The notes beneath the pieces were generated by a model, which saw only the letters and a list, made by a program, of their open reading frames with translations, did not search any database and was not told the origin of the DNA. Below are positions 4,191 to 64,000 of a stretch of DNA of 64,000 nt, in pieces (position 1 is the stretch's first letter; each line of letters opens with the position of its first letter). Position numbers and translations under genes: made by a program. The DNA comes from a virus (taxonomy: Duplodnaviria > Caudoviricetes), in IMG/VR virus record IMGVR_UViG_3300023055_000005, one strand, 5' to 3'.

Positions 4191-6148
4191 GGACTATGAG
4201 CAAGTATTACAAGGCAAGGGACGTCGCAGCGATGTCCCACGACGAACTCTGGGATATTCCCGATGGCCTGCACGAGGTCGAGTTCGACGACGGAACTGTG
4301 GAGGTCAAGGGTCGCTACCTGATCCTGTCCTCCTACATCTGGCGATTCGTCAACGAGTGGCCTGACGCACCGCTGCTGAAGGAGCACTTGTACTCGGAGA
4401 AGGAGTTCTCCAACAAGGCCTTCCTGAAGCTGCTGGGCACCATGCTGTTCAACGTGTTTGACACGTACGACATGCGGCGTGACCCGGCTAACATCGAGGA
4501 TCTGTGCAAGTACTTGTACGAGATCGTCAATGCGGTGTTCAACAACTTCACGCTGAACTGTGAAGAGAACGCAACCTCCCTCGATATCCTGGACTTGATC
4601 GAGGTGGTGGACTACCCGGAGATCGCAGCAGCCAAGGCTGCGGCACTGCCCACCCAGCGCGGCATCAAGAAGGCCCACGCGGCTATCAAGGATTCCCTGC
4701 TGGATGCGGAAGATCTCAGCCACAACGCCACGGCGAAGATTGCCCGGCGTCTGCTGGTTTCGATCGACCAGATCATCCAGTGTATCGGCCCCCGCGGCTT
4801 CATTACCGATATCGCATCGGTGACGTTCCGCGAGCCGGTGATGTCCGGCTACATCGAAGGTCTGAACACGCTGTACGAGTTCATGATCGAGGCGCAGTCG
4901 GCTTCCAAGTCGCTGCTGTTCAACAAGGATCCGTTGGCTGACTCGGAGTACCACAACCGTAAGCAGCAGCTGTCTGCTAACGTGGTGCGCCGTGTGGAAC
5001 GTGGTGATTGCGGTACGCCGTACTACACCACCTTCAACATCAAGGCCAGCGACCTTCGTGCATTTGCGGGCAAGTACTACTACGGCGATGACGGCAAGCT
5101 GTTGACGCTGAAGGAAACCGACCGCCACCTGCACGGTGCCAAGATCAAGATGCGCTCGGTGCCGCATTGCCAGCACAAGGATCACGGTACGGTCTGCTCG
5201 ACGTGCTTTGGTGAGTTGTGGATCTCCATCCCCGACGAAACCAACCTGGGCCATGTGGCAGCAACGGTCTTCTGTAAGCTGATCTCTCAGCTGATCCTGT
5301 CCACCAAGCATTTGGATAGCAATGCCTCGGTGGATGAGATCAACATCAGCGACATGGACAAGATGTACATCCAGGTTGCCGATGACCCCAACCAGATCCA
5401 GTTCACGGAAATGATGGGGAAGCAGAAGTTCAAGATGGTGATCCATGCATCGGAAGCCAAGTACCTGTCCGACGTCAACTTCGTGTCGGAAGTGGATCAG
5501 CTGCCGATCTCCCGCATGAGCGAAATGACGGCTGTAAAGTTGGTCATCGGAGAAGGATCTAATGTACAGGTTATGGTCGTCCCGGTTGAGATGAATGGTC
5601 GCAAGGCCTACTTGACCTACGACATCCTGGACTACATCAAGCGCAAGAGCTGGACGATCAACCACGAAGGCAACATCGTGATCGACATGTCCGAGTTCGA
5701 TGTGAACAAGGCTGCTTTCGAGCTGCCCCAGCGTCACATCAACATGGTCGACTACATGCGCTGGATGGAAGCGTTCCTGCGATCCTCCGGTCGTTCCGAG
5801 CGTAAGAAGATGGGTATCGAGAAGCGCCGCGTGCTGAGTGACTTCAACAGCATTGACGCTGCGTTGGCCGAACTGTATGAGATGGCCAGCTCCAAGCTGA
5901 CCGTCCCGATCGCATACCTGGAAGTGCTGATGTACTCCACCATGGTGCGTGATCCGGCCAATCGCGACCATCGACTGCCCAAGGGCGGTGACCCGATTCA
6001 CTTCGGTACGTTCGGCGACAACATGACCCGTCGTTCCTTGACTGGTCCGCTGGCGTATCAGGATCAGATCGGCGTCATCACCGACGTGGAGTCCTACATC
6101 CTGCGGCATCGTCCGCCGCATGTGCTGGATGAGATGGTTATCGGCTAA
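4187..6148 (+). CDS. Non-virion RNA polymerase beta' subunit, C-terminal part (phiKZ gp74-like)
   Basis: Bridge-helix-like LADSEYHNRKQQL...GDCGT, Zn site RSVPHC...VCSTCFG, trigger-loop-like LGHVAATVFCKLISQLILSTKH; overlaps the upstream stop. Confidence 0.92.
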   Translation: MRTMSKYYKARDVAAMSHDELWDIPDGLHEVEFDDGTVEVKGRYLILSSYIWRFVNEWPDAPLLKEHLYSEKEFSNKAFLKLLGTMLFNVFDTYDMRRDPANIEDLCKYLYEIVNAVFNNFTLNCEENATSLDILDLIEVVDYPEIAAAKAAALPTQRGIKKAHAAIKDSLLDAEDLSHNATAKIARRLLVSIDQIIQCIGPRGFITDIASVTFREPVMSGYIEGLNTLYEFMIEAQSASKSLLFNKDPLADSEYHNRKQQLSANVVRRVERGDCGTPYYTTFNIKASDLRAFAGKYYYGDDGKLLTLKETDRHLHGAKIKMRSVPHCQHKDHGTVCSTCFGELWISIPDETNLGHVAATVFCKLISQLILSTKHLDSNASVDEINISDMDKMYIQVADDPNQIQFTEMMGKQKFKMVIHASEAKYLSDVNFVSEVDQLPISRMSEMTAVKLVIGEGSNVQVMVVPVEMNGRKAYLTYDILDYIKRKSWTINHEGNIVIDMSEFDVNKAAFELPQRHINMVDYMRWMEAFLRSSGRSERKKMGIEKRRVLSDFNSIDAALAELYEMASSKLTVPIAYLEVLMYSTMVRDPANRDHRLPKGGDPIHFGTFGDNMTRRSLTGPLAYQDQIGVITDVESYILRHRPPHVLDEMVIG

Positions 6149-9710: not shown

Positions 9711-10171
9711 TATCTCTTTTTCTTTGTCCCGATTACGATATCGGTTTCGAAGGGTAACGGATCAAGGTAGTGATACATCAAAGGACGGATCATGTCCTCG
9801 TAGTTCAAGTGCCCATTACCGCAACCCAAGGGGACCATGGCCATGTCACTGATCCCCATCTGTTCATGCTTGTCTCTCAAGCGGATCAAGTTAGCCTCGA
9901 TCCAGTCGTAGCGTGACGGGCTACCCCACCATTGCTTGGTGGGAAAGAGCAAGACTTGTCGACCTTCCCCGAAGGGATACAGATACATCTTGTCAATGGA
10001 CAAGGCCTTAGCCTTGAACAACTTCATGTAGAACTCGTAGAGACCTGGGATAGACTCACGCAGACTCAGCGCAACTCCAGCCCCCATAGCACCTGTGGTA
10101 TTGATGGTACACACGAGCGTTTGACGCGGGGACGCCGAAACGTCCCCTACCAGTTCCTGTACGATCGGCAT
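9710..10171 (-). CDS. DarG/TARG1-like macrodomain (ADP-ribosyl hydrolase)
   Basis: VCTINTTGAMGAGVA, LLFPTKQWWGSPSRYDWIE, AMVPLGCGNGHL match the DarG-class macrodomain pattern, including the FPTK Lys. Confidence 0.88.
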   Translation of the reverse strand: MPIVQELVGDVSASPRQTLVCTINTTGAMGAGVALSLRESIPGLYEFYMKLFKAKALSIDKMYLYPFGEGRQVLLFPTKQWWGSPSRYDWIEANLIRLRDKHEQMGISDMAMVPLGCGNGHLNYEDMIRPLMYHYLDPLPFETDIVIGTKKKR

Positions 10172-16461: not shown

Positions 16462-16500
16462 GATTCCAATAACTTTCACCTCTATATAACTCAGGTGAAG
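16462..16500 (+). promoter_or_regulatory. Phage early-type promoter
   Basis: GATTCCAATAACTTTCACCTCTATATAACTCAGGTGAAG; the core TATAT(A/C)AC resembles the phiKZ early consensus TATATTAC. Confidence 0.75.
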
Positions 16501-19397: not shown

Positions 19398-19436
19398 GAT
19401 TCAAACAAACTTGAGTTCTATATAACTCAGGTGAAG
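19398..19436 (+). promoter_or_regulatory. Phage early-type promoter
   Basis: GATTCAAACAAACTTGAGTTCTATATAACTCAGGTGAAG; last 19 nt identical to the copy at 16482-16500. Confidence 0.75.
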
Positions 19437-35799: not shown

Positions 35800-35837
35800 G
35801 ATTCAAATAAGTTTCACCCCTATATCACCCATGTGAG
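35800..35837 (+). promoter_or_regulatory. Phage early-type promoter
   Basis: GATTCAAATAAGTTTCACCCCTATATCACCCATGTGAG. Confidence 0.72.
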
Positions 35838-35902
35838 CGTCGAGTTCATTTTCGGCGTTAATCCCAACCAAAGATTCACCACCCTGAAACAAGGAGCTTC
35901 AC

Positions 35903-53956: not shown

Positions 53957-54179
53957 CTACGTGAAGCGATTTGAGTTTCGTCTTCGCCAGAGCGCTGCAC
54001 TTGTCAATGCAAGACAAGAGCTGACTCGTTTAAAAGCTTACATGTCATCCCCTTGTTACGAGGAGCTCGATGCAGCCCGGCAGGAATGGGTTCGAGAACA
54101 GATCGTAGTGGAAGAGAAACGCCTGCAGTACCTGACGGCGTGGAGTCACTACTTCGAGTCCTCTAAGAGCAAGCCTTAA
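53949..54179 (+). CDS. Small coiled-coil hypothetical protein
   Basis: 76 aa; AAGG Shine-Dalgarno. Confidence 0.6.
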   Translation: MPDYVKRFEFRLRQSAALVNARQELTRLKAYMSSPCYEELDAARQEWVREQIVVEEKRLQYLTAWSHYFESSKSKP

Positions 54180-54201
54180 TCAATCACTTGGGGAGGGGGT
54201 C

Positions 54202-54669
54202 ATGGAAATTGCACTGTACATTGGCGCTGGGCTGCTGGTCATCATCATTCTGCTGGCACTGCGCAATCGCTCGTATCTGAAAGACCTGATGGCTTCCATG
54301 GATGAAGTCTTGGGGGATGCCGACGACGTCGCGTTCCCGAAGGAGATTCCGGAGGACATCATCCAGCAGACCCGCCAACGCGAATGGCCGCCTGCTCCGT
54401 GGCAGACCGACCCCAGGGTCACACTGGCTACCTCTGGTCTGTATCCGTTCTTGCGAATGGAAGCGTCCAGTAGTGAAGCCAGACTGAGGGCACTCACCCA
54501 GGCCTACGAACAGGAAAAGGGCAAGGAAAATCCTGACGAAGAACTGGTCAAACACCTGCAACAACTCCGCCTGCATGAGAGCAATCTCGGGGCAAGTTTT
54601 CTGTTGGCGTATCTTCGCGCCGAAACCATCGCTGCACAACCACAAGGAACCGCTACGCATGTCGGGTAA
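54202..54669 (+). CDS. Membrane-anchored hypothetical protein
   Basis: GGAGG Shine-Dalgarno; N-terminal TM. Confidence 0.65.
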   Translation: MEIALYIGAGLLVIIILLALRNRSYLKDLMASMDEVLGDADDVAFPKEIPEDIIQQTRQREWPPAPWQTDPRVTLATSGLYPFLRMEASSSEARLRALTQAYEQEKGKENPDEELVKHLQQLRLHESNLGASFLLAYLRAETIAAQPQGTATHVG

Positions 54670-55099
54670 CTTCTTCAAGGAAAAGATCGTCGTCCATCAC
54701 AGCCCGTTCGTCGAACAGGATTTGCTGAATGCGGTCAAGGAACAGATCGCCGACCGCCTGGACAGCCAGGGTCTGCCGCACGATCCCAGCGTCATCGTGT
54801 TCAACAACCTCGGGCCGTCCGGCGCCGGTGATGTGCTGACCTTCGCATGGGAAGGCGAGTTCTTCGTGGCCGGTCCGCAGAACGCTGGCCAGAGCCTGGG
54901 CACCGTCGTGCACAACAGCGACGTGAACGTCTTCCTCGGCAAGCGCGAAGCCAAGCTCGGCACCTTCGCCAAGAACTTCATCAACGGCCTGGGCAACATC
55001 GACCTGAACGCTACCCAGGTTCCGTCGCTGGCCGACGTCATCCGTCAGATCAACGACTTCCGCGACATCTTCCCGCGCCTGGAAGCAACCCGCGTCTAA
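54659..55099 (+). CDS. Hypothetical protein, strongly biased codons
   Basis: AAGGA Shine-Dalgarno before ATG 54659. Confidence 0.8.
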   Translation: MSGNFFKEKIVVHHSPFVEQDLLNAVKEQIADRLDSQGLPHDPSVIVFNNLGPSGAGDVLTFAWEGEFFVAGPQNAGQSLGTVVHNSDVNVFLGKREAKLGTFAKNFINGLGNIDLNATQVPSLADVIRQINDFRDIFPRLEATRV

Positions 55100-55152
55100 T
55101 AGCGCCGGCCTGTAATACCTGCCCCCACCTCCGGGTGGGGGTTTTATACCGA

Positions 55153-55302
55153 ATGGAGAAAGACGTGACACCCGTCGAAGCCTACCTCATCAGCCAGATC
55201 ATCTACGCTGTCATCGTTTGCGTGTTTGTAGTACCCGCAATGATCGGCGCAGGTATTGATGTGTACCGTATCCACAAGACCAAAGTGAAGGTAAAGAAAT
55301 GA
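55153..55302 (+). CDS. Small membrane protein
   Basis: IIYAVIVCVFVVPAMIGAGI, basic tail; ATGA overlap with the next gene. Confidence 0.5.
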   Translation: MEKDVTPVEAYLISQIIYAVIVCVFVVPAMIGAGIDVYRIHKTKVKVKK

Positions 55303-56495
55303 CGCAGCATTACGTTGGAACCAAGGTCATCCAGGCATACGAGAACGAGAAGGACGGCAAGCCCGGCTTCGCCGTTCAGTACCCGGATGGCTACACCTCC
55401 TGGTCCCCGAAGGAAGTCTTCGAAGAAGCTTACCTTCCGATCGGCGTCATCCCGGCCGGTACGCCGGACTTCGTGCAGCGCATGATTGCTGAACGTGTCC
55501 AGCTCAACGACCGTAAGAATAAGCTTAACGATTTCTACGTCGAAGCCAAGAAGAACGGCGGTCACCCGGATCTTCAGGGCGACGAGCTGTCGGACATCGA
55601 CGATCAGCTTGAACGGATGGTCGAATATCTCCAAGCACTGGATCAGCGCATCCAACGCCACGGCTTCATCTTCCACGACACCGGCCGTGTGCTCACGGTG
55701 CAGCAGGCCCAGGTCGAAAGCTATACCCGGATCAAAGAAATCATCGTCCAGATCATCGCCGCCGCGGAGAAGAAGGGCGAGCCGCTGGACCTTGCTGCCA
55801 CGCAGGATATCCCGAAGGCAATCCGCGAGAAAATCTTCCTCGAATTCGACGCGGGCAGTGTAGTTGAATGCTCTTTCGAGAATGCCTATTGGAATGTGAG
55901 GGTGAGGGGGATGCTGCTGTTCAGCCGCTCGGTCCACGAGTACAAGATCCGCCACCTGGAATGCTACCGTAGCACCGTCGACAAGCGCATCGCCCAGGCT
56001 ATCCAAAGTGCCTATGCGGAAGTCACCTCGATTGGCAATACCGCCAATGATGTCGTGTTCATGAACTACCTCTCTACGCACTTCCTCAAGAAGGTCGGGG
56101 ACATGGGTCAGGTCGCCATCGCCGGCCGCCGCATCGACGACTACTGGAAGTTCATTGTCGATTACACCGATGACGTGCTGCAGGGAATCTTCCTCTGCTA
56201 CAATTCGGTCAGATACTCGGCTTTCAGGGTGGAGATGCTGAGTCTGAACTCTCGCCAGTCTCGCTTCGAGCAGGCGCTGGACTCCTTGCGCACGCTCGTC
56301 CCCGACAGTGTCAGGGAAGCAATCCTTACCAAGCTCGATGAAAGCATCTGCCCGGTGGGCGACGTACTTGGGCCGTTGCCAACCCTTACTATCACCCGCC
56401 GCGGCGCGGCTATTGTCTACAAGGATGAAGCCTTGGAGCGTCTGAACCAGATGATCCAGGCGGCCGTCGCCAAGATGCAGGAGGCCAAGGCATGA
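55299..56495 (+). CDS. Multidomain phage protein (YxGTK...YPDGY.SWSPK module, coiled-coil module, unknown C-terminal region)
   Basis: HYVGTKVIQA...YPDGYTSWSPKEVFEEAY; FVQRMIAERVQLNDRKNKL...QLERMVEYLQALDQRI. Confidence 0.8.
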   Translation: MTQHYVGTKVIQAYENEKDGKPGFAVQYPDGYTSWSPKEVFEEAYLPIGVIPAGTPDFVQRMIAERVQLNDRKNKLNDFYVEAKKNGGHPDLQGDELSDIDDQLERMVEYLQALDQRIQRHGFIFHDTGRVLTVQQAQVESYTRIKEIIVQIIAAAEKKGEPLDLAATQDIPKAIREKIFLEFDAGSVVECSFENAYWNVRVRGMLLFSRSVHEYKIRHLECYRSTVDKRIAQAIQSAYAEVTSIGNTANDVVFMNYLSTHFLKKVGDMGQVAIAGRRIDDYWKFIVDYTDDVLQGIFLCYNSVRYSAFRVEMLSLNSRQSRFEQALDSLRTLVPDSVREAILTKLDESICPVGDVLGPLPTLTITRRGAAIVYKDEALERLNQMIQAAVAKMQEAKA

Positions 56496-57220
56496 CCGAC
56501 TCCTACGGAAACTACGCGCTGCTCGTATCTTTCCCGGATCAGAGCGAGACCTTCACCCTCGGCGTAGAGGCCGGTGTGTTCTGGCAGCGCCTGTCCATGG
56601 GTGAACGTGAGTTTGAGTACTTGGCTCACACCAAGAACCTCGCATGCCTGGAACGGATGGCCGCGTCGATGGATCTCCAGGTCAAGACCATCGCCAGTGA
56701 CGATGAGTGGACGACCCTCGGTATCTACCCGAAGGCGGCGGAGAAAGAAAGGCCGCGGCTGATGCTGATCAACGGTGGCATTCACGTGAGCACGGAGAAG
56801 ATGGAGGGCGTGTCTGAAGCACTCGCCAATCATGAACTCCAACGCACATTGGTGCAGGTGCTCGATGGCAAGTACCGTGCCGGTGAGGTTGTCACTGTCC
56901 GCCGCAATCTCGAAGGCATCATCCCGCTGTTCGGCAATATCTTCAGCGCAGACACCACCTTCATCGTCAACACCAACGCCACCTTCGACGAGCTGCAGGC
57001 AGTCATCGAACCGCTGCTCGTGCCCATCGGCAGTAAGCGTTCGCAGGTCTACCTGTCGTACTCGCTGCCGGTTGTCGATGCGTGCTATGCCAAGTATGTG
57101 GTGATCGATCGTCGCCGCATGCCTGGCAGTGAGAGCGATGCCTTCCAGCGTACCGAGGCCTTGATCAAGGGTATTACCAAGATCGCCAAGGTGCCGCCGG
57201 TGTTCATCGTAATGGACTAA
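56492..57220 (+). CDS. Hypothetical protein
   Basis: GGAGG Shine-Dalgarno; ATGA overlap. Confidence 0.75.
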   Translation: MTDSYGNYALLVSFPDQSETFTLGVEAGVFWQRLSMGEREFEYLAHTKNLACLERMAASMDLQVKTIASDDEWTTLGIYPKAAEKERPRLMLINGGIHVSTEKMEGVSEALANHELQRTLVQVLDGKYRAGEVVTVRRNLEGIIPLFGNIFSADTTFIVNTNATFDELQAVIEPLLVPIGSKRSQVYLSYSLPVVDACYAKYVVIDRRRMPGSESDAFQRTEALIKGITKIAKVPPVFIVMD

Positions 57221-57223
57221 GTG

Positions 57224-57268
57224 AACGGGAGGGGCTTCGGCCCCTCCCTCTATGTCTTTTTTTTTGTC
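57224..57268 (+). terminator. Intrinsic terminator
   Basis: GGGAGGGGC-TTCG-GCCCCTCCC, then TATG and a T tract. Confidence 0.8.
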
Positions 57269-57325
57269 TGGTTTTCTGCCCACTATATGGGGCGCTTTCG
57301 CCCGTCTACGCAGCTAACCGGGATC

Positions 57326-57718
57326 ATGGCAATGTTGAAACACTTCGTACTACTGAAAACTTTCGAGCACGGCTGGCAGGCCAAGCAGTTTGTTCTGATC
57401 CTGCGTCAGCGCCTGACCAGCTCCAAGTCCTTCCTGGGCGCATGGAGCTGGGCACAGACGACGATGACTCTGCCCGACCACCCAGAGCAATTCGAAGGTC
57501 CAGTCATTCTGGAGAACGGCTATCGCGACGTGGCCTGCTATCGCGACAAGTGCCGCAACGGCGAAGGTGACGTGTACACCTATCCGGCCATGAAGGACTG
57601 GATCGAAGGTGGGTTCTGCGGTGAGCCGCCGTCCCCGCCACAAGAGTCCGACGACCAACAGACGTTGGGCGACTTGGGCAACATTTCCAAACTTACCAAG
57701 TCTGAGGACGCGCCATGA
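57326..57718 (+). CDS. Hypothetical protein
   Basis: Start likely ATG 57326 or 57332; ATGA overlap with the next gene. Confidence 0.65.
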   Translation: MAMLKHFVLLKTFEHGWQAKQFVLILRQRLTSSKSFLGAWSWAQTTMTLPDHPEQFEGPVILENGYRDVACYRDKCRNGEGDVYTYPAMKDWIEGGFCGEPPSPPQESDDQQTLGDLGNISKLTKSEDAP

Positions 57719-58146
57719 GCAGTACCAACAAACGACAGTGCTGCTACCTCGGTGAAGGTCGCTATCTGGTCCGCAGTGCAGAAGGCTACGAAGAAGCCAA
57801 GCAGCAAGCGCTCAAGCAGAGCGGCCTGCGTGGTCCGGATGTCAAGATCAAGTACACCGGCGTCTTCCGCTTCGGCTATCCGGCGGTGGTCTGGTTCTGG
57901 CCGATCTTCCGTGGGAACATGCGTTGGGACATCTACGCCTGCTCCTACCACCTGAACACGTACATGGAGTTCCTCCACAAGCGCCTGAAGGAGCTGGAGA
58001 ACCATGACGTGCTGATCGCCGAGCTGGGCTATACCAAGCTGGCCGAGGTGGCCGCCGGTCGTGCAGCCGATGATCCGGAGTTCCACGCTGATCTTCTGCG
58101 CCTGCTCGAAGAAGGCGCTGCCTCCAACGAAACCAAGGAACCCTGA
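57715..58146 (+). CDS. Hypothetical protein
   Basis: GAGG Shine-Dalgarno. Confidence 0.72.
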   Translation: MSSTNKRQCCYLGEGRYLVRSAEGYEEAKQQALKQSGLRGPDVKIKYTGVFRFGYPAVVWFWPIFRGNMRWDIYACSYHLNTYMEFLHKRLKELENHDVLIAELGYTKLAEVAAGRAADDPEFHADLLRLLEEGAASNETKEP

Positions 58147-58376
58147 TGTTCATCGGTCTGTTCAAAATGGCACTCGGCATCGGCGGGTTGTTCTTCACCC
58201 TGCTGGGCATGTTCGTGTTCTTCAAGGTGTTCATCGCGCCCAAGGTTGCGCCGATGGATACCTCCAACCGGATCAACCACCTGCGCCTGCTTTGGTTCGT
58301 GCTGGCCAGGCCGGAACTGTTCGTCGACACGTTCCCGTGGCTGAAGAACGATGAGCTGAAGAACGTCACCAAGTGA
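58146..58376 (+). CDS. Small membrane protein
   Basis: TGATG coupling; long hydrophobic N-terminus. Confidence 0.7.
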   Translation: MFIGLFKMALGIGGLFFTLLGMFVFFKVFIAPKVAPMDTSNRINHLRLLWFVLARPELFVDTFPWLKNDELKNVTK

Positions 58377-58410
58377 CATATCGCCCCTCCCAGACGGGAG
58401 GGGCTTTATG
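58377..58410. repeat. CATA-hairpin-TATG element; inverted near-copy of 8432-8466
   Basis: CATATCGCCCCTCCCAGACGGGAGGGGCTTTATG. Confidence 0.85.
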
Positions 58411-58412
58411 CC

Positions 58413-58450
58413 GATTCCAATATGTTTCAACCCTATATAACTCATGTGAG
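58413..58450 (+). promoter_or_regulatory. Phage early-type promoter
   Basis: GATTCCAATATGTTTCAACCCTATATAACTCATGTGAG. Confidence 0.75.
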
Positions 58451-58500
58451 GTTCCAATCAAAAGACCTCATTCCCTTCTTAAACTCAATGGAGATTCAAC

Positions 58501-58707
58501 ATGAACAAGTCCACCCCGAAGACCAACAACGTCGCCGCTCGTCGTATCGCTCCGGCACGTAAGCCCCTCATCAAGCGCCTTGGTTCGGCTGTCGTCGATA
58601 CCGCCAAGGACAAGCAGGTCCAGATTGTTGTCGGTGGTTCGCTCGCAGTTTGCGCGCTGATCATCACCGGCGCAGTCCTGGCTGATAAGTACCTGGAACG
58701 TAACTAA
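58501..58707 (+). CDS. Small tail-anchored membrane protein with basic N-terminus
   Basis: GGAG Shine-Dalgarno; IVVGGSLAVCALIITGAVLA. Confidence 0.75.
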   Translation: MNKSTPKTNNVAARRIAPARKPLIKRLGSAVVDTAKDKQVQIVVGGSLAVCALIITGAVLADKYLERN

Positions 58708-58781
58708 CTCCAGACCGCAGCAAACTGAGCCGTCATTTCGGCGGCTCTTTTATTTCCCTTCCAATAATGGAGTAACAAAGA

Positions 58782-59807
58782 ATGAAAAAGAAAGTAACTG
58801 AAACGAAGAACGCCGCAACTACCGTGGACAACACCGAGTACTACGAACTGATTGCCAAGCGCAAGAAGCTCGCCGCTCGTGCCAAGAAGCTGACGGACGC
58901 TGGCAAGCCGGTCCCGACCAAGCTTCGCGACGAAATGGCTGCCCTGAAACGACAGACCAACAAGTCCTCCATCGTCCTCGGCAAGGGTCTCAAGACCCTG
59001 GCTACCAAGCCGAACGATGTGAAGGAAGTCAAGGTGGTTGACATCACCACCACGACCACCATCACCGAACTGGCAAAGGCGCTGGGCATGCGTCCGAGCG
59101 GACTGGTGAGCCGCCTGTTCCGTCATGGGACTACTGCGGTGAGCGGTGACAAGGTGACCACGCTCAAGAGCGCCGTCAAGGTTCTCAACGAGATCGGCTC
59201 GAAGGAAGGCTTCAAGGTCCAGCTCGTCGAATCCACTGCGGTGGACAAGCTCACCGATGCGTTCAGCACTGCGACCAAGAATCGCCGTGTGCGCAAGAAG
59301 CCGCTGACCAAGATCGCCATTTCCCCGCGTATCACCATCGAGCAGCTGGCTGAAAAGCTGGACATCACCAAGAACGCGCTGGTCAAGCACTACTTCGCCG
59401 AGAAGAAGATCGTGTCCACCTCGCAGACCGTTGCGTCGGCAGGTCGCATCCTCGCTCGCAAGATCGCTCACGAGCTGGGCTTCGAGTTGACCTACACCAA
59501 GGTCGGCAAGGTGTCCAAGACGGTCTCCCAGTCCGAAGCGGGTCTCACCATGCGTCAGCTGGAAAACGAGATCTTCAAGGTCGACGGTCTGCGCATCGTC
59601 TTCCGCGTCGATCAGAACGTTCGCTCGGGGATTGCCAAGTGGGGTCAGCGTATGCCTGACAGCGCCACGATCTCCAGCCTGCACGCTCGGCTGAAGCGGC
59701 ACCACGCGGACTTCAAGGACTGCCAGTTTGTCATCACCGACAAGAACGGCGACGCCTTCACGTCCACCAGCAACCGCAAGCAGAAGCTCTCGGCTCTGGC
59801 TTTCTAA
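58782..59807 (+). CDS. Lys-rich protein with two IF2-N-like domains and a small C-terminal domain
   Basis: TITELAKALGMRPSGLVSRLFRHG...AVKVLNEIG and ITIEQLAEKLDITKNALVKHYF...LARKIAHELG; GGAG Shine-Dalgarno. Confidence 0.75.
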   Translation: MKKKVTETKNAATTVDNTEYYELIAKRKKLAARAKKLTDAGKPVPTKLRDEMAALKRQTNKSSIVLGKGLKTLATKPNDVKEVKVVDITTTTTITELAKALGMRPSGLVSRLFRHGTTAVSGDKVTTLKSAVKVLNEIGSKEGFKVQLVESTAVDKLTDAFSTATKNRRVRKKPLTKIAISPRITIEQLAEKLDITKNALVKHYFAEKKIVSTSQTVASAGRILARKIAHELGFELTYTKVGKVSKTVSQSEAGLTMRQLENEIFKVDGLRIVFRVDQNVRSGIAKWGQRMPDSATISSLHARLKRHHADFKDCQFVITDKNGDAFTSTSNRKQKLSALAF

Positions 59808-59843
59808 GCAGTACCCACCAACCACTGGTATAAGGAGATAGAA

Positions 59844-60284
59844 GTGAACGTTGGTGTTTGTGAGAAGGTTGTCCCTCAGCGTCGTGAGTTCTACGTGACG
59901 CACTCGTTTGAGGGTAACCTCTACTTCAGGAATCTCCACCCGATGAATGTCGAGGAGCCTGTCCTGAAATTGACGTGTGAGATCCCTACGCTCGGCATGG
60001 AACATGCTGATCGGAATGGTCGCATTGACGTCATGAAGTTGTGCATCTTGAAGAAGTTCGAGGCTCAAGGTCTGAACGGTATGGAACTGGGCGCCCTGTT
60101 AGGGTTGCTCAGTCCCCGCTGCATATGCCCTGAGTTACTCGATGAGCTGCCTGCGACTGTGCTGAACCATGTACAGATCGAGGATGAACGGCTGATCAAA
60201 ATCTCCGGTACGCATTGGGGCGAATATCTGGAAGCTAACTACCTGGCGGTAAGTTGGCCCAGTGAAAAGTTCCTCGGCTGCTGA
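59844..60284 (+). CDS. Hypothetical protein
   Basis: AAGGAG Shine-Dalgarno before GTG; AT-richer codon usage. Confidence 0.65.
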   Translation: MNVGVCEKVVPQRREFYVTHSFEGNLYFRNLHPMNVEEPVLKLTCEIPTLGMEHADRNGRIDVMKLCILKKFEAQGLNGMELGALLGLLSPRCICPELLDELPATVLNHVQIEDERLIKISGTHWGEYLEANYLAVSWPSEKFLGC

Positions 60285-60377
60285 GAAAGAGTAGTAACTG
60301 GCTGTACTCTGCTGTACCATGTATGGCGGAGGTAACCCCTCCGCCTTTTCTCGCTTAAACCTAATGGAGTTTCAAAT

Positions 60378-60920
60378 ATGTGGGGCAATTACGTCGGAAC
60401 GTTGGAAATCAGCCGTGCCAAGAGCACCGCTCATCGCTCGGGTCGCATCATGTTCTTCGATCGCGCTACTGACCTGTTCGCTCACGTCCTGTTCGATCTG
60501 GACCCGATCAACTACGAAGACCCCAAGGACTACCGCGGTCTGTTCGTGGTGGATGAGATCTTCACCAACATCCTCGATGAAAACGAAGCCGACCGCTTCC
60601 GCGACATCATCGCGCTGTCGATCCACTTCCTGTTCAACAACAAGGACTTCAAGGATCGGCACCGCATCACTCACACCGAGATCCTCATCGGCGTTGGCGA
60701 GCTGGATGAGAATCCTGTCCACAGCTCGCTGATGCAGAGCACGACCAAGTTCCTGGTCGACGAGCATCACGAGGAAGGTGACAATGTCATCACCATCGAG
60801 AAGCTGCGCGAGTTCGCTCGCAACGACTCGGTCATGAACAAGCAGATCGGCATGTACACCGCCGGTGAGCGCGAGCCCACCATGGTGATCGACTGCACGT
60901 CGGCATTCGCCACGCTGTAA
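60378..60920 (+). CDS. Hypothetical protein
   Basis: GGAG Shine-Dalgarno. Confidence 0.8.
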   Translation: MWGNYVGTLEISRAKSTAHRSGRIMFFDRATDLFAHVLFDLDPINYEDPKDYRGLFVVDEIFTNILDENEADRFRDIIALSIHFLFNNKDFKDRHRITHTEILIGVGELDENPVHSSLMQSTTKFLVDEHHEEGDNVITIEKLREFARNDSVMNKQIGMYTAGEREPTMVIDCTSAFATL

Positions 60921-60925
60921 CATCC

Positions 60926-60960
60926 TAGAGGGCAGGACTTCGGTTCTGCCCCCTTTCCTT
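60926..60960 (+). terminator. Intrinsic terminator
   Basis: GGGCAGGAC-TTCG-GTTCTGCCC then a T-rich tract. Confidence 0.7.
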
Positions 60961-60989
60961 TCGTAATACCCCCCAATGGAGAAATTCGT

Positions 60990-61493
60990 ATGAACAGCAA
61001 GACCCCGCGTTACATAGCGGTCCTTGACATGCTGAACATCGGCCGCATGACCAACGCCGACGGTGACCTCATGGTCATCGATACCACCACCGCTGAACAC
61101 GTTTTTCTTTATTTGGCAATTCGTGAAGAAGGAAGTGAAGAAGAGGGGGATTATGGTGTCGAGTTGGAGATAGTCGGCGCACGCGACAACATTCCCCAGA
61201 ACCCGGTCGAAGAGGACAACCTGGCAGCTGCTCGGCGACTGGCCAACGGTGCCTACAGCATCCTCTGCAGCGCTCTGGACATCATCCGGGAAAATCCAGA
61301 AAGCGAAGTCTTCGCCCACCGCGCCCTGGCTAAGGCCTCCGTCAAATACAACTGCGAAGATAGCGAACATCTGACTGAGAAAGTGCTGTACTCGGTCATG
61401 CAATCGAATGATGCCTGTCATGAAAAAGTCGAACTGACCATCCTGACCGACAAGTTGATCAGGCGCACCTTTGATCTGGGTGATCGTACCTAA
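60990..61493 (+). CDS. Hypothetical acidic protein
   Basis: GGAG Shine-Dalgarno. Confidence 0.72.
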   Translation: MNSKTPRYIAVLDMLNIGRMTNADGDLMVIDTTTAEHVFLYLAIREEGSEEEGDYGVELEIVGARDNIPQNPVEEDNLAAARRLANGAYSILCSALDIIRENPESEVFAHRALAKASVKYNCEDSEHLTEKVLYSVMQSNDACHEKVELTILTDKLIRRTFDLGDRT

Positions 61494-61532
61494 GTCCCAC
61501 ACTCGCCCAACAACTACCCAACCGAGGTTCCC

Positions 61533-61787
61533 ATGGCCAGCAAAGCCGTCAAGCGGTTGACCGCAAGGTATACCCGCAAGCGCAACTCGTTCCTGCTCTA
61601 CGCAGCCCTGATGATGATCGTCTGTTTCTCGATGGGACTCATCCTTCCCAACGCCAGTGTGTTCGGCAGTTACAAGTGGGCGGTACTGGGAGTGCAGCTG
61701 GGATTGTTCTTCTTCGCCGCAGTCGCCGCAGTCAAGAAGTTCTGGCCGGCATACTACGACTACCTCCGATTGCGGAGTGTGGCGTAA
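61533..61787 (+). CDS. Two-pass membrane protein
   Basis: GAGG Shine-Dalgarno; basic N-terminus and two TM segments. Confidence 0.72.
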   Translation: MASKAVKRLTARYTRKRNSFLLYAALMMIVCFSMGLILPNASVFGSYKWAVLGVQLGLFFFAAVAAVKKFWPAYYDYLRLRSVA

Positions 61788-61797
61788 TTTGCTACAC

Positions 61798-62092
61798 GAG
61801 CAGGCCTATAATCTGTACAAGTCAGTGTGCACTGCAGCTCCTCCGATAACCCGAATGTAGGCACGGCCATGCGTGCTGATCATCTATCCCGTTCGTGTAC
61901 GGGAAAGCTCTTTAGGGGGAGCCATAATCGGAGTCAAAGCGCAGCACATACCCTGCATCAACATCGTTTGTCTGATCGACCTACTTGCTCGGGTTGCTAG
62001 GATCGCGGAGTTGTTGCCTGACTCTTCTGCTAGGTTGGGGTGGCAGTTTATTCCAAGCATTAGGCCTGCTCCTTCGGGGGCAGGCTTTATGC
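61798..62092 (+). ncRNA. Candidate structured non-coding RNA or attenuator
   Basis: 11-bp end-to-end stem (61798-61808 with 62061-62071), an internal four-way junction (61841-61933), further hairpins and a terminal UUCG hairpin; ORFs here lack a Shine-Dalgarno and coding bias. Confidence 0.45.
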
Positions 62093-62128
62093 CCTTATGC
62101 GCTTTTCGAATACCACAACGGAGTTCCA

Positions 62129-62293
62129 ATGACTGAAGATAAGTTCACCAAGTGTAAGCCGGGTTCCTTCCTCGACAAGATGTACCGCGAGAAGTTCGGG
62201 CAGGTTTACATTGACTACATTGAAGTGGAAGAGCAGTGCACCTCGCGCTCCTCCACTGGGCCGGAGTTTGAGTTCGAGGATCTCGACGCATGA
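62129..62293 (+). CDS. Small hypothetical protein
   Basis: GGAG Shine-Dalgarno before ATG 62129; ATGA overlap with the next gene. Confidence 0.6.
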   Translation: MTEDKFTKCKPGSFLDKMYREKFGQVYIDYIEVEEQCTSRSSTGPEFEFEDLDA

Positions 62294-62823
62294 ACTTCAT
62301 GCCCCTGCTCTGCAATAAGCTGTGCATCTGCAAGTCCTCGTTCGGCTGGCTCATCATGACGCCGCTGTTCGTCTACATGTCCTCCTCTTCGGCGATGATG
62401 GGTCCGATCGTCTCCGGGTCCACCGCACTCACGATCAACGGCTGGTTGGTCACGTGGAAGTGGAAAGGCAAGCTGGTGTTCATGTGGTCCTTCACTGAAC
62501 TGCTCCCCGCGGTTAAGAAGTGGATCCTTGGACCGAATACCAACGAGTTCAAGGAGACCGGGGCGTGGACCTACGCCTACCTGCCTGATGGCTCGTCGGC
62601 GATCGTCAAAGAGGGCTACCTCACCGTCCACAATCGCCGCTGGCGTAAGAGCGTTCCACATGGCCGTCTGTACGAGGTCGTTGGCTTCCCCGGTTATCTC
62701 AAGGCGCCATGCCTTCAAAGCGCCGCAGAAAAGGCCGAAGCATCCTTCAAGGCACTCGAAGAGTTGTCGGGACTGGTCAACGAACTGCAAACCGATATCA
62801 ACAACTCTGCACTGAAAGCGTAA
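62290..62823 (+). CDS. Hypothetical protein, hydrophobic N-terminus
   Basis: 177 aa in operon. Confidence 0.65.
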   Translation: MNFMPLLCNKLCICKSSFGWLIMTPLFVYMSSSSAMMGPIVSGSTALTINGWLVTWKWKGKLVFMWSFTELLPAVKKWILGPNTNEFKETGAWTYAYLPDGSSAIVKEGYLTVHNRRWRKSVPHGRLYEVVGFPGYLKAPCLQSAAEKAEASFKALEELSGLVNELQTDINNSALKA

Positions 62824-62872
62824 CACCCTCCTTCGCAGTATCACTAAAACACAACGTATCACGGAGATAGAC

Positions 62873-63379
62873 ATGAGCAACATTGCACAGCTGACCCAGA
62901 CCGTTTCCCTCGAAGTCAATGCCTACACCGATCAGGCACGACTCCAGGAGATCGCAGCCAAGCTGCGTTCGATGATGGTCCAGGACGGCCAGGATGAAGC
63001 AAACCTGACGACCCACGCTTCGTCCGACAACAAGCCGGAATATCCGACGGCTGTGATCAAGACCGAGTTCCGCTGCAAGGGTTTTCGCAACATGCTGGAG
63101 ATCGACATCCAGCTCAGCGAAAGCCTGCTGACCAACAACCTGCTGATGGTGGACCACAAACGTCGCCTGCAAGCCTACGCCGCCGGTAAGGAAGCGCTGT
63201 GGGTCATCAACGAGTTGAACAAGACTCTGCTGGATGATCCGGAAAGTTCCAACCCGCAGCTGGACAAGTACATCAACCGCGGCCAGCGCATCATCCTGCG
63301 GAAAGAGTACGACGCTCACGCATTCCACCGCGAACTGGTCAAGCTGCAGGACGAAATCCTCGGCTCCCTCCCCAAGTAA
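62873..63379 (+). CDS. Hypothetical protein
   Basis: GGAG Shine-Dalgarno. Confidence 0.78.
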   Translation: MSNIAQLTQTVSLEVNAYTDQARLQEIAAKLRSMMVQDGQDEANLTTHASSDNKPEYPTAVIKTEFRCKGFRNMLEIDIQLSESLLTNNLLMVDHKRRLQAYAAGKEALWVINELNKTLLDDPESSNPQLDKYINRGQRIILRKEYDAHAFHRELVKLQDEILGSLPK

Positions 63380-63450
63380 CTGACCCACCCTCTCAGGGCG
63401 GGGGCACAACCCGCCCTTTCCTTTGAGCAATACCCTTAACGGAGTTTCAC

Positions 63451-64000
63451 ATGACCAACGTACAGCTTACCCAGAAACTGGACTTCCCCGGCTGGCATGA
63501 TGTCAATGGCATCCCCAGTGGACTGTGGGACGATCCCAACTGCGACTTCGAGTCCTACATCGAGGGTCGCTACAACTACGCCGATGTTGAGTTCCATCAC
63601 CCGCAGTTCCTGCCCTACGGCGTTCGTGAACAGGCTCGTGCCGATACCAGCCTGAGCCGTGGCATGAATGAGTTCAAGACCGACCTGCGTTACGTGGTCA
63701 CCAACGGCATGCTGGTGTTTGAAACCTACTACACCTACAGCGGCGCCAGCGTTGATCGGTTCCCGGCAGTTGCTGTACTGACCCCGGACGAACTACTGGT
63801 CTTCGGCGCACCTGACTGGGGCCTGTGGGCGGATCGTACTTTCACCAAGGACGATTACCTGCGCTTCAACATCGCCAAGCTGCGTCTGTCGTTGCCGCTG
63901 CTGATGCGGCACAACCTGATCATGCAAGGCGACAACAAGTACGTCTTCGCCGAGATCTATCGCTCCAACCGCTCGGCCAACACCAGCAACCGTGCAGCCA
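63451..64000 (+). CDS. Hypothetical protein, runs off window end (partial)
   Basis: GGAGTTTCAC-ATG; open frame MTNVQLTQKLDFPGWHDV... to base 64000. Confidence 0.75.
   Translation, partial: MTNVQLTQKLDFPGWHDVNGIPSGLWDDPNCDFESYIEGRYNYADVEFHHPQFLPYGVREQARADTSLSRGMNEFKTDLRYVVTNGMLVFETYYTYSGASVDRFPAVAVLTPDELLVFGAPDWGLWADRTFTKDDYLRFNIAKLRLSLPLLMRHNLIMQGDNKYVFAEIYRSNRSANTSNRAA

Follow-up and report, generated by a model that had tools for sequence, protein, structure and literature searches.

We found that a soil jumbo phage, kin of Xanthomonas phage Xoo-sp14, encodes a 341-aa protein with two modules of the type that builds the N-terminal region of bacterial IF2. The identity of both repeats as IF2 N-type modules was confirmed by four independent routes, Pfam, profile, and fold tests among them. 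The architecture as a whole (a helical hairpin, two IF2_N modules, and a tentatively β-grasp-like domain) is new; the IF2_N module itself was already known. The original prediction, read from the DNA alone, had described tandem IF2 N-type domains with basic linkers in a mimic of translation initiation; it is partly supported, in that its structural part holds, and the mimicry stays an analogy with the N2 sub-domain of IF2 on helix h16.

A genuine gene of a phiKZ-like jumbo phage

The reading frame at 58782 to 59807 on the plus strand is a genuine gene. Its GC3 (0.81) is on par with that of the remaining genes of the window (the whole stretch of 64,000 nucleotides that was analyzed), GGAG stands 8 nt 5′ of its ATG, and the N-terminus of the protein is kept among orthologues. 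The orthologue in Xoo-sp14, Xoosp14_51, is annotated as "hypothetical." A 454-aa antisense ORF over the gene has a GC3 of 0.54 and was rejected, from codon-position GC, as a high-GC artefact.

In the protein, a basic helical hairpin comes first, then a pair of IF2 N-type modules with an Arg-rich linker between them, and last a C-terminal domain of ∼90 aa (Table 1); the net charge is positive in every domain. The AF2 model of the whole protein has a mean pLDDT of 59; most of the repeat regions lie between the 60s and 80. For the helical hairpin, structural matches were generic only (SerRS arm, ClpC M-domain; Z of ∼6). Linker residues A160, F161, A164, T165, R168, R169, and K173 are invariant among close orthologues, and the linker motif was found too in P0008 and P0012, two family members with a single repeat.

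Table 1. Features of the gene, its protein, and the region upstream.
Feature	Coordinates	Strand	Details
Terminator-like G+C-rich hairpin with T-rich tail, end of upstream gene block	58383..58405	+	Read directly
Promoter-type motif GATTCCAATAT-N2-TTCA-N4-TATATAAC-TCATGTGAG	58414..58451	+	Presumed early (virion RNA polymerase) class
68-aa gene with hydrophobic stretch, first after the motif	58501..58707	+	ORF; Xoo-sp14 counterpart Xoosp14_50
Conserved hairpin, then TTTTATTT, between 68-aa gene and 341-aa gene	58727..58747	+	Terminator-like
341-aa ORF	58782..59807	+	pI 10.2, net charge +33
Basic antiparallel helical hairpin, aa 17-61	58830..58964	+	AF2 helices 18-39 and 46-61, pLDDT 72-80
IF2 N-type module 1, aa 83-149	59028..59228	+	Pfam IF2_N best stretch 90-121; VIA Z 5.3-5.7
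Arg-rich linker, aa 160-174	59259..59303	+	AF..AT+.RRV+K, conserved
IF2 N-type module 2 (N2-like), aa 175-239	59304..59498	+	TIGR00487 177-249 to model positions 5-74; VIA Z 9.4, 7.8
C-terminal domain, aa 254-341	59541..59804	+	GLT..LE.EI, three invariant Arg, C-terminal Phe

The genome context is that of the Chimalliviridae, i.e., of a phiKZ-like jumbo phage with a chimallin homologue known from Xoo-sp14, which bears out the phage type that had been proposed. Genes of the window matched phiKZ_IP (E = 1.3e-54) and include an RNAP beta-like gene (Rpb2_6), and Xoo-sp14 encodes a homologue (E = 6e-22) of phiKZ gp54, which is chimallin, the protein of the phage-nucleus shell. Nucleus-forming jumbo phages keep transcription apart from translation. 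Xoo-sp14 is among the listed chimalliviruses (bioRxiv 10.1101/2024.03.21.585822).

Both repeats are IF2 N-type modules

Pfam IF2_N (PF04760) matched two stretches of the protein with 29.8 bits versus a cut-off of 25.3 (E = 5e-7), and it scored 45.9 bits on Xoosp14_51 and 29.2 bits on the relative P0004. Taken individually, 11 of the 14 family repeats matched IF2_N at an E value of ≤1 (best, 2.6e-7). A profile made only of these 14 repeats, module 1 of our protein included, was searched against the PDB sequences. It matched residues 259 to 319 of Pseudomonas aeruginosa IF2, which form the N2 sub-domain (E = 3.5e-7). The match spanned the entire repeat, and the next matches were other IF2 chains, that of Thermus thermophilus first (E = 0.007). 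The best non-IF2 match had an E value of 0.008 and the best HTH-type DNA-binding protein one of 0.11. Within P. aeruginosa IF2, the profile scored 27.1 bits on N2 versus 5.7 bits on N1.

Fold comparisons gave the same answer. Foldseek of the predicted model returned as its best PDB match 7uiu, in which the N2 sub-domain of IF2 sits on the 30S subunit. With VIA, the model of module 2 aligned with IF2 residues 134 to 197 (9a4o_A) over 64 aa (Z = 9.4, rmsd of 1.9 Å, 27% identity), and a longer segment (residues 169 to 246) aligned with N2 of 7uiu (residues 253 to 327) with both flanking tails covered (Z = 7.8); the model of module 1 aligned with N/G1 of T. thermophilus IF2 (residues 1 to 54; Z = 5.3 to 5.7). 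In a structure search of the Swiss-Prot AFDB, the best 30 matches were all IF-2, and many covered both repeats and the linker.

The contrary outcome named at the outset, a generic MerR or excisionase HTH with no IF2_N match, is not what Pfam showed. None of its HTH regulators (MerR, Cro/C1, LacI, TetR, HTH_10, etc.) scored above cut-off, the best being HTH_10 (18.8 versus 23.1 bits), and the phage antirepressor domain KilAC/ANT (PF03374) reached 20.2 bits versus a cut-off of 25.3, with only positions 17 to 52 of 108 matched. A PHROG search of the repeats gave no significant match, and a single repeat of the 14 matched any PHROG, a DNA-binding family. The predicted lack of a GTPase was upheld as well: TIGR00487 scored 24.2 bits versus a cut-off of 424.4, over model positions 5 to 74 only, and GTP_EFTU did not match. 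Kinship of the repeats with IF2 needs profiles or structure to be seen, since single-sequence searches fall short of IF2: phmmer of single repeats against the PDB did not recover IF2, and BLASTP of repeat 1 against repeat 2 gave no alignment. The profile of the whole protein against the PDB sequences gave nothing useful.

Like the N-terminal region of bacterial IF2 (N1 and N2; PF04760; PDB 7uiu, 1nd9, and 4b3x), the phage protein has the same three-helix module twice and a charged flexible linker, and in the predicted model its repeat 2 superposes on ribosome-bound N2, tails included. However, it has no G, C1, or C2 domain and thus cannot be an initiation factor. It also differs from IF2 in being much more basic, in a sequence identity of ∼20 to 27%, and in its N-terminal helical hairpin and C-terminal domain, both missing from IF2.

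C-terminal domain and family

That a further domain follows the repeats was borne out by phrog_10601, which matched residues 255 to 324 (E = 1.1e-4) and also Xoosp14_51 of Xoo-sp14 (E = 3.9e-7) and Erwinia phage Ea35-70 (E = 1.5e-55). This domain is common to our protein, a 96-aa protein of Ea35-70, Stratton gp76, and a 115-aa protein of Serratia phage Yaphecito; unlike our protein, the Erwinia and Serratia proteins have no IF2_N and carry the domain alone or in tandem. Its AF2 model (pLDDT 71.6, pTM 0.62) matched Erwinia and Serratia jumbo-phage proteins in BFVD (TM of 0.66 to 0.71), with an E value of 1.8e-5 for the Ea35-70 protein (TM of 0.66/0.71). In the VIA comparison with the PDB, most of the rows listed, and nearly all top-ranked ones, were of UBL, MoaD, or Atg12 types, all weak (Z of ≤3.6), and the TM scores to ThiS and UBL in the Atlas were 0.42 to 0.46; the models thus hint at a ubiquitin-like or β-grasp-like fold. 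The profile of the domain had no match among the PDB sequences, and its matches in the AFDB clusters were unnamed proteins only. An ADP-ribosyltransferase-like reading (E-x-E, Arg, and an S/T-rich stretch) was rejected by eye, as the motifs come in the wrong order and the domain is too small.

Among 1.84 billion representatives, the family has seven clusters, and Xoo-sp14 is its one cultured phage; its members come from phiKZ-like jumbo phages throughout, and every one is strongly basic (pI 9.9 to 10.7). A tblastn search with the family, three distant members included, against 50,697 phage records found Xoo-sp14 only, and a scan of IMG/VR found 3 contigs only. PF04760 was not found in the genomes of phiKZ, Stratton, and Ea35-70. 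In the alignments, the C-terminal domain is the invariant core of the family, and in Erwinia jumbo phages it is found again with no IF2_N attached. At least one repeat is present in 6/7 clusters, the remaining one, P0010, being the C-terminal domain alone; clear copies number 0 to 2 per member, with a possible third in P0007. In the Xoo-sp14-like clade, the repeats are conserved as strongly as the C-terminal domain, and LGMxPSGLVSRLFRHG is nearly invariant. We found no partner gene conserved across the family's neighborhoods.

The ESM Atlas holds small IF2_N-annotated proteins, partly viral, as well as antirepressor-type clusters with IF2_N and ANT, so the IF2_N module is not unique to the Xoo-sp14-type phage family. 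The claim that no phage IF2-N protein had been described stands for the PHROGs and the literature searched. The Atlas clusters with ANT/KilAC resemble our protein in that IF2_N serves outside IF2, at times in tandem, as a portable module, but they are mostly bacterial or prophage borne and have a recognizable partner domain, whereas ours joins IF2_N to a jumbo-phage domain in a lytic phiKZ-like phage.

Locus and presumed early promoter

Near copies of the hairpin that ends the upstream gene block were found at further sites of the genome. The promoter-type motif that follows it occurs, with TATATAAC, in four copies in the window, all on the plus strand, and is kept at the orthologous sites of Xoo-sp14 and of a 230-kb JGI contig. 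A search of the entire Xoo-sp14 genome gave 7 matches, every one of them forward, and the control gave 0; a rare, strand-specific AT-rich motif usually lies upstream of the family gene. A sigma-70 promoter scan of the region found none. In RNAP-encoding jumbo phages, AT-rich motifs of such a type mark early operons (PMC7598289), and by analogy we presume that the motif is of the early promoter class and that our gene is expressed early. The gene was correctly placed second behind the motif, yet a conserved hairpin with a T-run separates it from the first. This hairpin is near-identical in Xoo-sp14 and the 230-kb contig, despite 50 to 55% protein identity.

The 68-aa gene had no Pfam or PHROG match and was not found beside distant family members; the same searches assigned none of the neighboring genes, bar a crAss001_48-type module three genes upstream. 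Twenty-one soil "RNA" runs contain the stretch. In the four that were examined, a single contig of flat depth carried the whole ∼234-kb genome, so these runs say nothing about transcription, timing, or transcript ends.

Proposed function and alternatives

We propose that the protein is a strongly basic modular adaptor, presumably expressed early, of a phiKZ-like phage of the Xoo-sp14 lineage, and that its IF2 N-type modules and basic tails would bind structured RNA. Binding to nucleic acid of some kind is probable. The likeliest RNA target would be helix h16 of 16S rRNA, at the 30S shoulder, where IF2 N2 is anchored; N2 contacts h16 through its tails and the turn between helices 1 and 2 (S277, V278, K279, and R259) (PMC9192638). 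Occupancy of h16 could weaken the anchoring of IF2 on host initiation complexes; alternatively, 30S subunits or ribosomes might be tethered to whatever the C-terminal domain and the N-terminal hairpin hold. Specific docking on 30S/h16, proposed by analogy with IF2, is tentative, and we consider it somewhat unlikely.

Docking on RNA is favored by the superposition of module 2 on ribosome-bound N2 with both of its tails, by the positive charge of all domains, by the Arg-rich motif conserved ahead of repeat 2, and by the near silence of the HTH and PHROG searches. In the profile alignment, the turn that contacts h16 in IF2 reads G-M-R (repeat 1) or D-I-T-K (repeat 2), which preserves a hydrophobic center and a neighboring basic residue relative to IF2 N2. 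The rare strand-specific motif ahead of the gene and the phiKZ-like context also speak for this explanation as the best one. Against docking on the 30S subunit, the column of IF2 R259 is non-basic (the flanking residues are basic), and that of K279 is non-basic in several family repeats; the likeness to IF2 is visible to profiles and structure only; IF2_N+ANT antirepressor-type clusters are among the Atlas neighbors; what is invariant in the family is the C-terminal domain and P0010 has no repeat, so the core function may lie outside IF2_N; and the fold is a small three-helix unit whose N1 copy in IF2 binds a protein, NusA, in vivo and not rRNA (PMC12297416). The phiKZ ribosome-binding early proteins offer a parallel, in that a presumed early protein of a phiKZ-type phage may touch the translation machinery, but they have no sequence relation to ours, and the phiKZ genome has no match to PF04760.

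As it reproduces the N1-linker-N2 anchor without the GTPase, the protein is a concrete candidate for a phage factor at the 30S shoulder, and it would bear on how the mRNAs of nucleus-forming jumbo phages get to ribosomes and compete for them. In a more far-reaching and quite improbable version, it would be a viral copy of a ribosome anchor, in which the IF2-type modules hold h16 and the other domains hold a phage structure or RNA. It might then recruit 30S subunits to mRNAs that leave the early vesicle or phage nucleus (localized translation) or block the docking site of IF2 and of IF2_N-tagged host toxins or defense effectors.

Among the alternatives, the protein could be a general binder of phage transcripts that makes no specific contact with the ribosome and serves to protect these transcripts, to export them from the early vesicle or phage nucleus, or to hand them over to translation; the modules and the Arg-rich linker would then be generic binders of structured RNA. 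We regard this as unlikely. The strong basicity of all domains and the conserved Arg-rich motif agree with it, as do the proven binding of an RNA helix by the IF2 N2 fold, the presumed early promoter, and the separation of transcription and translation in this lineage, but known RNA-binding families (KH, S1, RRM, and Whirly) were not detected in the Pfam and PHROG searches, nothing points to phage RNA over rRNA, and P0010 has no repeats.

Just as unlikely is a DNA-binding early protein with HTH-like three-helix modules, as in phage antirepressors and regulators, that regulates transcription or coats or condenses DNA. Sub-threshold matches of HTH_10, HTH_3, HTH_24, LacI, MerR, and ANT/KilAC fall on the same helices, PHROG "transcriptional regulator" families matched weakly (E = 0.003 to 0.02), the pI is high, and IF2_N is joined to ANT in Atlas clusters. 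However, IF2_N exceeded its curated cut-off and all HTH and ANT matches stayed below theirs, the PDB profile search placed IF2 at 3.5e-7 and HTH-type DNA binders no better than 0.1, the best 30 Swiss-Prot fold matches were all IF-2, and the PHROG DNA-binding family was reached by only one repeat in 14. If DNA or another RNA were bound instead, a new architecture would still be defined.

It is very unlikely that the IF2_N modules are incidental, adding only solubility or unspecific affinity to a function that resides in the β-grasp-like C-terminal domain and would be common to the Erwinia and Serratia jumbo-phage proteins. The C-terminal domain is the sole invariant part, and P0010 has nothing else; Stratton gp76, with two tandem domains of the C-terminal type and no IF2_N, and the variable repeat number point the same way. 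Against this, six of the seven clusters have at least one repeat, and in the Xoo-sp14-like clade the repeats are conserved as well as the C-terminal domain. The protein is a first handle on the phrog_10601 domain, which is widespread in jumbo phages.

Least likely is a protein-protein adaptor that binds partners as IF2 N1, of the same fold, binds NusA (PMC12297416): the phage protein does mimic the N1-linker-N2 arrangement, but the repeat profile fits N2 of P. aeruginosa IF2 far better than N1, and phiKZ-type phages are independent of host RNA polymerase (PMC7598289), which makes the benefit unclear. Because Xoosp14_51 comes from a cultured Xanthomonas oryzae phage, gradients, CLIP, and cryo-EM are feasible with it.

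IF2_N modules in a phage protein

The gene is an intact 341-codon ORF whose ATG is preceded, 8 nt upstream, by GGAG, and the same start is found in five homologues (50 to 100% identity to the protein). A 454-aa antisense ORF covering the gene was rejected as a high-GC artefact (GC3 of 0.54); the codon-position GC of the gene (0.54/0.41/0.81) agrees with that of the long genes of the window. Long antisense ORFs over real genes are common throughout the window (57% GC); a caller that naively takes the longest ORF is misled by them, so the coding strand has to be chosen by codon-position GC.

Pfam IF2_N (PF04760) matched the protein over two stretches with 29.8 bits (E 5e-7; cut-off, 25.3 bits), whereas no HTH-type family, nor ANT/KilAC, reached its own cut-off in Pfam; by the tests run, the protein lies outside every HTH regulator family. 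Xoosp14_51, its orthologue in Xanthomonas phage Xoo-sp14, scored 45.9 bits. Taken singly, 11 of 14 repeats from all family members matched IF2_N and 1 of the 14 matched any PHROG. As a profile against PDB sequences, the alignment of these repeats matched Pseudomonas aeruginosa IF2 end to end (residues 259 to 319, E 3.5e-7), followed by Thermus thermophilus IF2 (E 0.007); Escherichia coli IF2 (E 0.1) and the IF2N NMR structure (E 0.42) were sub-significant. The top non-IF2 match had an E value of 0.008, and HTH-type DNA binders had values of at least 0.1. Whole-protein and single-sequence searches of PDB sequences did not reach IF2, and BLAST found no similarity between repeats 1 and 2.

For the AF2 model (pLDDT 59 on average, mostly 60s to 80 in the repeat regions), the top PDB match in Foldseek was the 30S-bound N2 sub-domain of IF2 (7uiu). 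With the structural alignment tool VIA, repeat 2 reached Z 9.4 (rmsd 1.9 Å, 64 residues, 27% identity) and Z 7.8, and repeat 1 Z 5.3 to 5.7 against the T. thermophilus N/G1 domain; rows unrelated to IF2 all fell on the N-terminal hairpin (Z ≤6.2). The best 30 matches among Swiss-Prot models were all IF-2, and many of these alignments span repeat 1, linker, and repeat 2 (query 92 to 243 versus IF2 ∼4 to 175), which is the N1-linker-N2 layout of IF2. IF2_N clusters likewise occur among the ESM Atlas feature neighbors of the protein. The IF-2 model TIGR00487 aligned with residues 177 to 249 through its positions 5 to 74 only (24 bits versus a 424-bit cut-off), so the N-terminal module alone is common to both proteins and the GTPase is not. 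The original prediction of tandem IF2 N-type domains without a GTPase, joined by a basic linker and followed by a further domain, is thus borne out by Pfam, the repeat profile, Foldseek, and VIA, including the PF04760 and Foldseek searches that it had proposed. The resemblance to IF2 is real, and the protein belongs in the IF2_N domain family without being an IF-2.

Features of the protein and of its locus (nt, window positions; aa, protein residues)
Feature	Position	Strand	Remark
Gene under study	nt 58782-59807	+	341 aa
Basic helical hairpin	aa 17-61		generic structural matches only
Module 1	aa 83-149		IF2 N-type
Arg-rich motif	aa 160-174		AF..AT+.RRV+K, conserved
Module 2	aa 175-239		IF2 N-type
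C-terminal domain	aa 254-341
Antisense ORF	nt 58704-60068	-	rejected
398-aa protein	nt 55299-56495	+
Promoter-type motif	nt 16463-16500, 19399-19436, 35801-35838, 58414-58451	+	four copies
Terminator-type hairpins	nt 57226-57256, 58377-58413		e.g. GGGAGGGGC-TTCG-GCCCCTCCC, then T-run
Hairpin with T-run	nt 58727-58747	+	between 68-aa gene and gene under study

A rare family with an invariant C-terminal domain

Searched exhaustively by HMM, 1.84 billion representatives yielded only seven real clusters, and word-indexed searches added two sequences. Xoo-sp14 is the sole carrier among 50,697 GenBank phage records, and three IMG/VR contigs have the gene. Sufficiently long family contigs look like jumbo phages (up to 230 kb and 323 to 324 kb) and encode PhiKZ_MCP, ribonucleotide reductase, PhoH, or SNF2 genes. 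Repeat number differs among members: none in P0010 (113 aa); one repeat-1-type module with the Arg-rich motif behind it in P0008, P0012, P0014, and P0015; one repeat, which the profile search aligns with module 2 and which adjoins the C-terminal domain, in P0009 and P0011; and two or more in P0007 (428 aa) and the Xoo-sp14-like clade to which our protein belongs. The part that is invariant throughout the family is the C-terminal domain, with three arginines and an LE.EI helix among its fixed residues.

Folded alone (13 sequences; pLDDT 71.6, pTM 0.62), this domain, a member of phrog_10601, matched, at E values as low as 1e-6 and TM scores of ∼0.66 to 0.71, uncharacterized proteins of Erwinia phages Ea35-70, Stratton, and Wellington and of Serratia phage Yaphecito. 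Stratton gp76 (354 aa, nt 709 to 1773 of its locus) has two tandem phrog_10601-type domains, with helices LENEIF and LENKIL, behind an unrelated N-terminal part, and no IF2_N was found in it; jumbo phages carry the domain as a mobile module. Most listed matches to solved structures were ubiquitin-like beta-grasp domains. Because their Z scores were ≤3.6 and agreement in the Atlas was weak, we name the predicted fold beta-grasp-like only tentatively.

The papers that we searched describe no phage IF2_N protein, as originally stated, and no PHROGs family covers the repeats; the Atlas, however, has clusters of small, partly viral IF2_N proteins. It also has IF2_N+ANT clusters, and a DGR target protein has IF2_N by automatic annotation (PMC5758913); like our protein, these carry IF2_N outside IF-2. 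Since IF2_N is already known as a portable module, at least by automatic annotation, what is new is a rare architecture in a new biological setting. With Xoo-sp14 as cultured representative, the family is open to testing.

Possible function

The domains are real; the function that we propose is argued by analogy. In published work, IF2 N-type modules have two partners. N1 binds NusA (PMC12297416), and N2 (residues 266 to 312 plus tails) binds 16S rRNA h16 on the 30S shoulder, anchoring IF2, with contacts from R259, S277, V278, and K279 (PMC9192638). The phage repeats are far nearer N2 than N1 (27.1 versus 5.7 bits on P. aeruginosa IF2), and the VIA alignment of repeat 2 with N2 includes both tails. 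The protein is extremely basic (net charge +33, pI 10.2, each segment net positive; pI 9.9 to 10.7 across the family). Given the N2-like repeats, this basicity, and the Arg-rich linker, we favor structured RNA as the ligand. The most specific candidate target would be the 30S shoulder, a possibility that we advance tentatively. Docking there could compete with IF2 anchoring or, alternatively, keep small subunits tied to anything that the other domains bind. Repeat 1 has G-M-R at the turn equivalent to S277-V278-K279, and repeat 2 has D-I-T-K; the R259 column is not basic in the repeats, its neighbors being basic.

Binding to another RNA, to which the same basicity would apply, is rather unlikely. 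We judge equally unlikely that the modules bind DNA as HTH or ANT modules do, the support found being sub-threshold HTH/ANT matches and the Atlas IF2_N+ANT clusters. A function wholly in the invariant C-terminal domain is improbable, and a NusA-type protein contact is the most doubtful.

Phage and promoter context

Parts of Xoo-sp14 (MT939492, 232 kb) are 82 to 85% nucleotide-identical to the window, and Xoosp14_51, annotated as a hypothetical protein, is 50.6% identical to our protein. Genes in the window include those for a phiKZ-type internal head protein (E 1.3e-54) and an RNA polymerase beta-like fragment, and head-tail joining domains are encoded as well. Xoo-sp14 has a homologue (E 6e-22) of phiKZ gp54, the nuclear-shell protein chimallin. 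Xoo-sp14 is among the chimalliviruses listed in bioRxiv 10.1101/2024.03.21.585822. Soil runs yielded the phage of the window in single contigs, the longest of 234,185 bp. The stretch is contained in 21 soil "metatranscriptome" runs, every one deposited as a separate study; in four of them (X7, X15, X16, and X23, compared over nt 54000 to 64000) the phage is one near-complete genome contig of flat depth (67 to 272), which fits DNA carry-over and pervasive transcription alike. Upstream, residues 56 to 120 of the 398-aa protein match PF21825 (crAss001_48-related, E 5.8e-13; labelled "Sequestin" in precomputed tables) and residues 1 to 118 match phrog_32732, the other ∼280 aa having no Pfam or PHROG assignment.

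A ∼40-nt motif, GATTCmAAyAw-N2-TTsA-N4-TATATmAC-yCAnGTGA, with a TATATAAC box, occurs in the window on the + strand only. At our locus, a terminator-like hairpin is followed by a motif copy, a 68-aa gene whose product has a hydrophobic stretch, and the gene under study. The motif is kept at the orthologous sites of Xoo-sp14, which has just 7 matches genome-wide, all forward (control, 0), and of the 230-kb contig. In two distant relatives (L003 and L005), a hairpin and a closely similar TTTCA-N3-CTATAmTAC box directly precede the family gene. In jumbo phages that encode RNA polymerases, the virion polymerase reads conserved AT-rich motifs lying 5' of early operons (PMC7598289), and our motif is probably the early promoter class of this lineage. 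The position originally given for the gene, second behind a promoter, was confirmed with respect to the promoter-type motif; "early" is a reasonable inference from this published pattern and the conserved AT-rich motif.

The hairpin between the two genes is nearly nucleotide-identical in three phages (also at L001 ∼5940 to 5965 and L006 ∼9945 to 9970) whose flanking proteins are only 50 to 55% identical, which suggests that it is functional; possible roles are those of an attenuator or RNA-stability element. Terminator-type hairpins recur at least five times, on both strands, in the 234-kb genome contigs.
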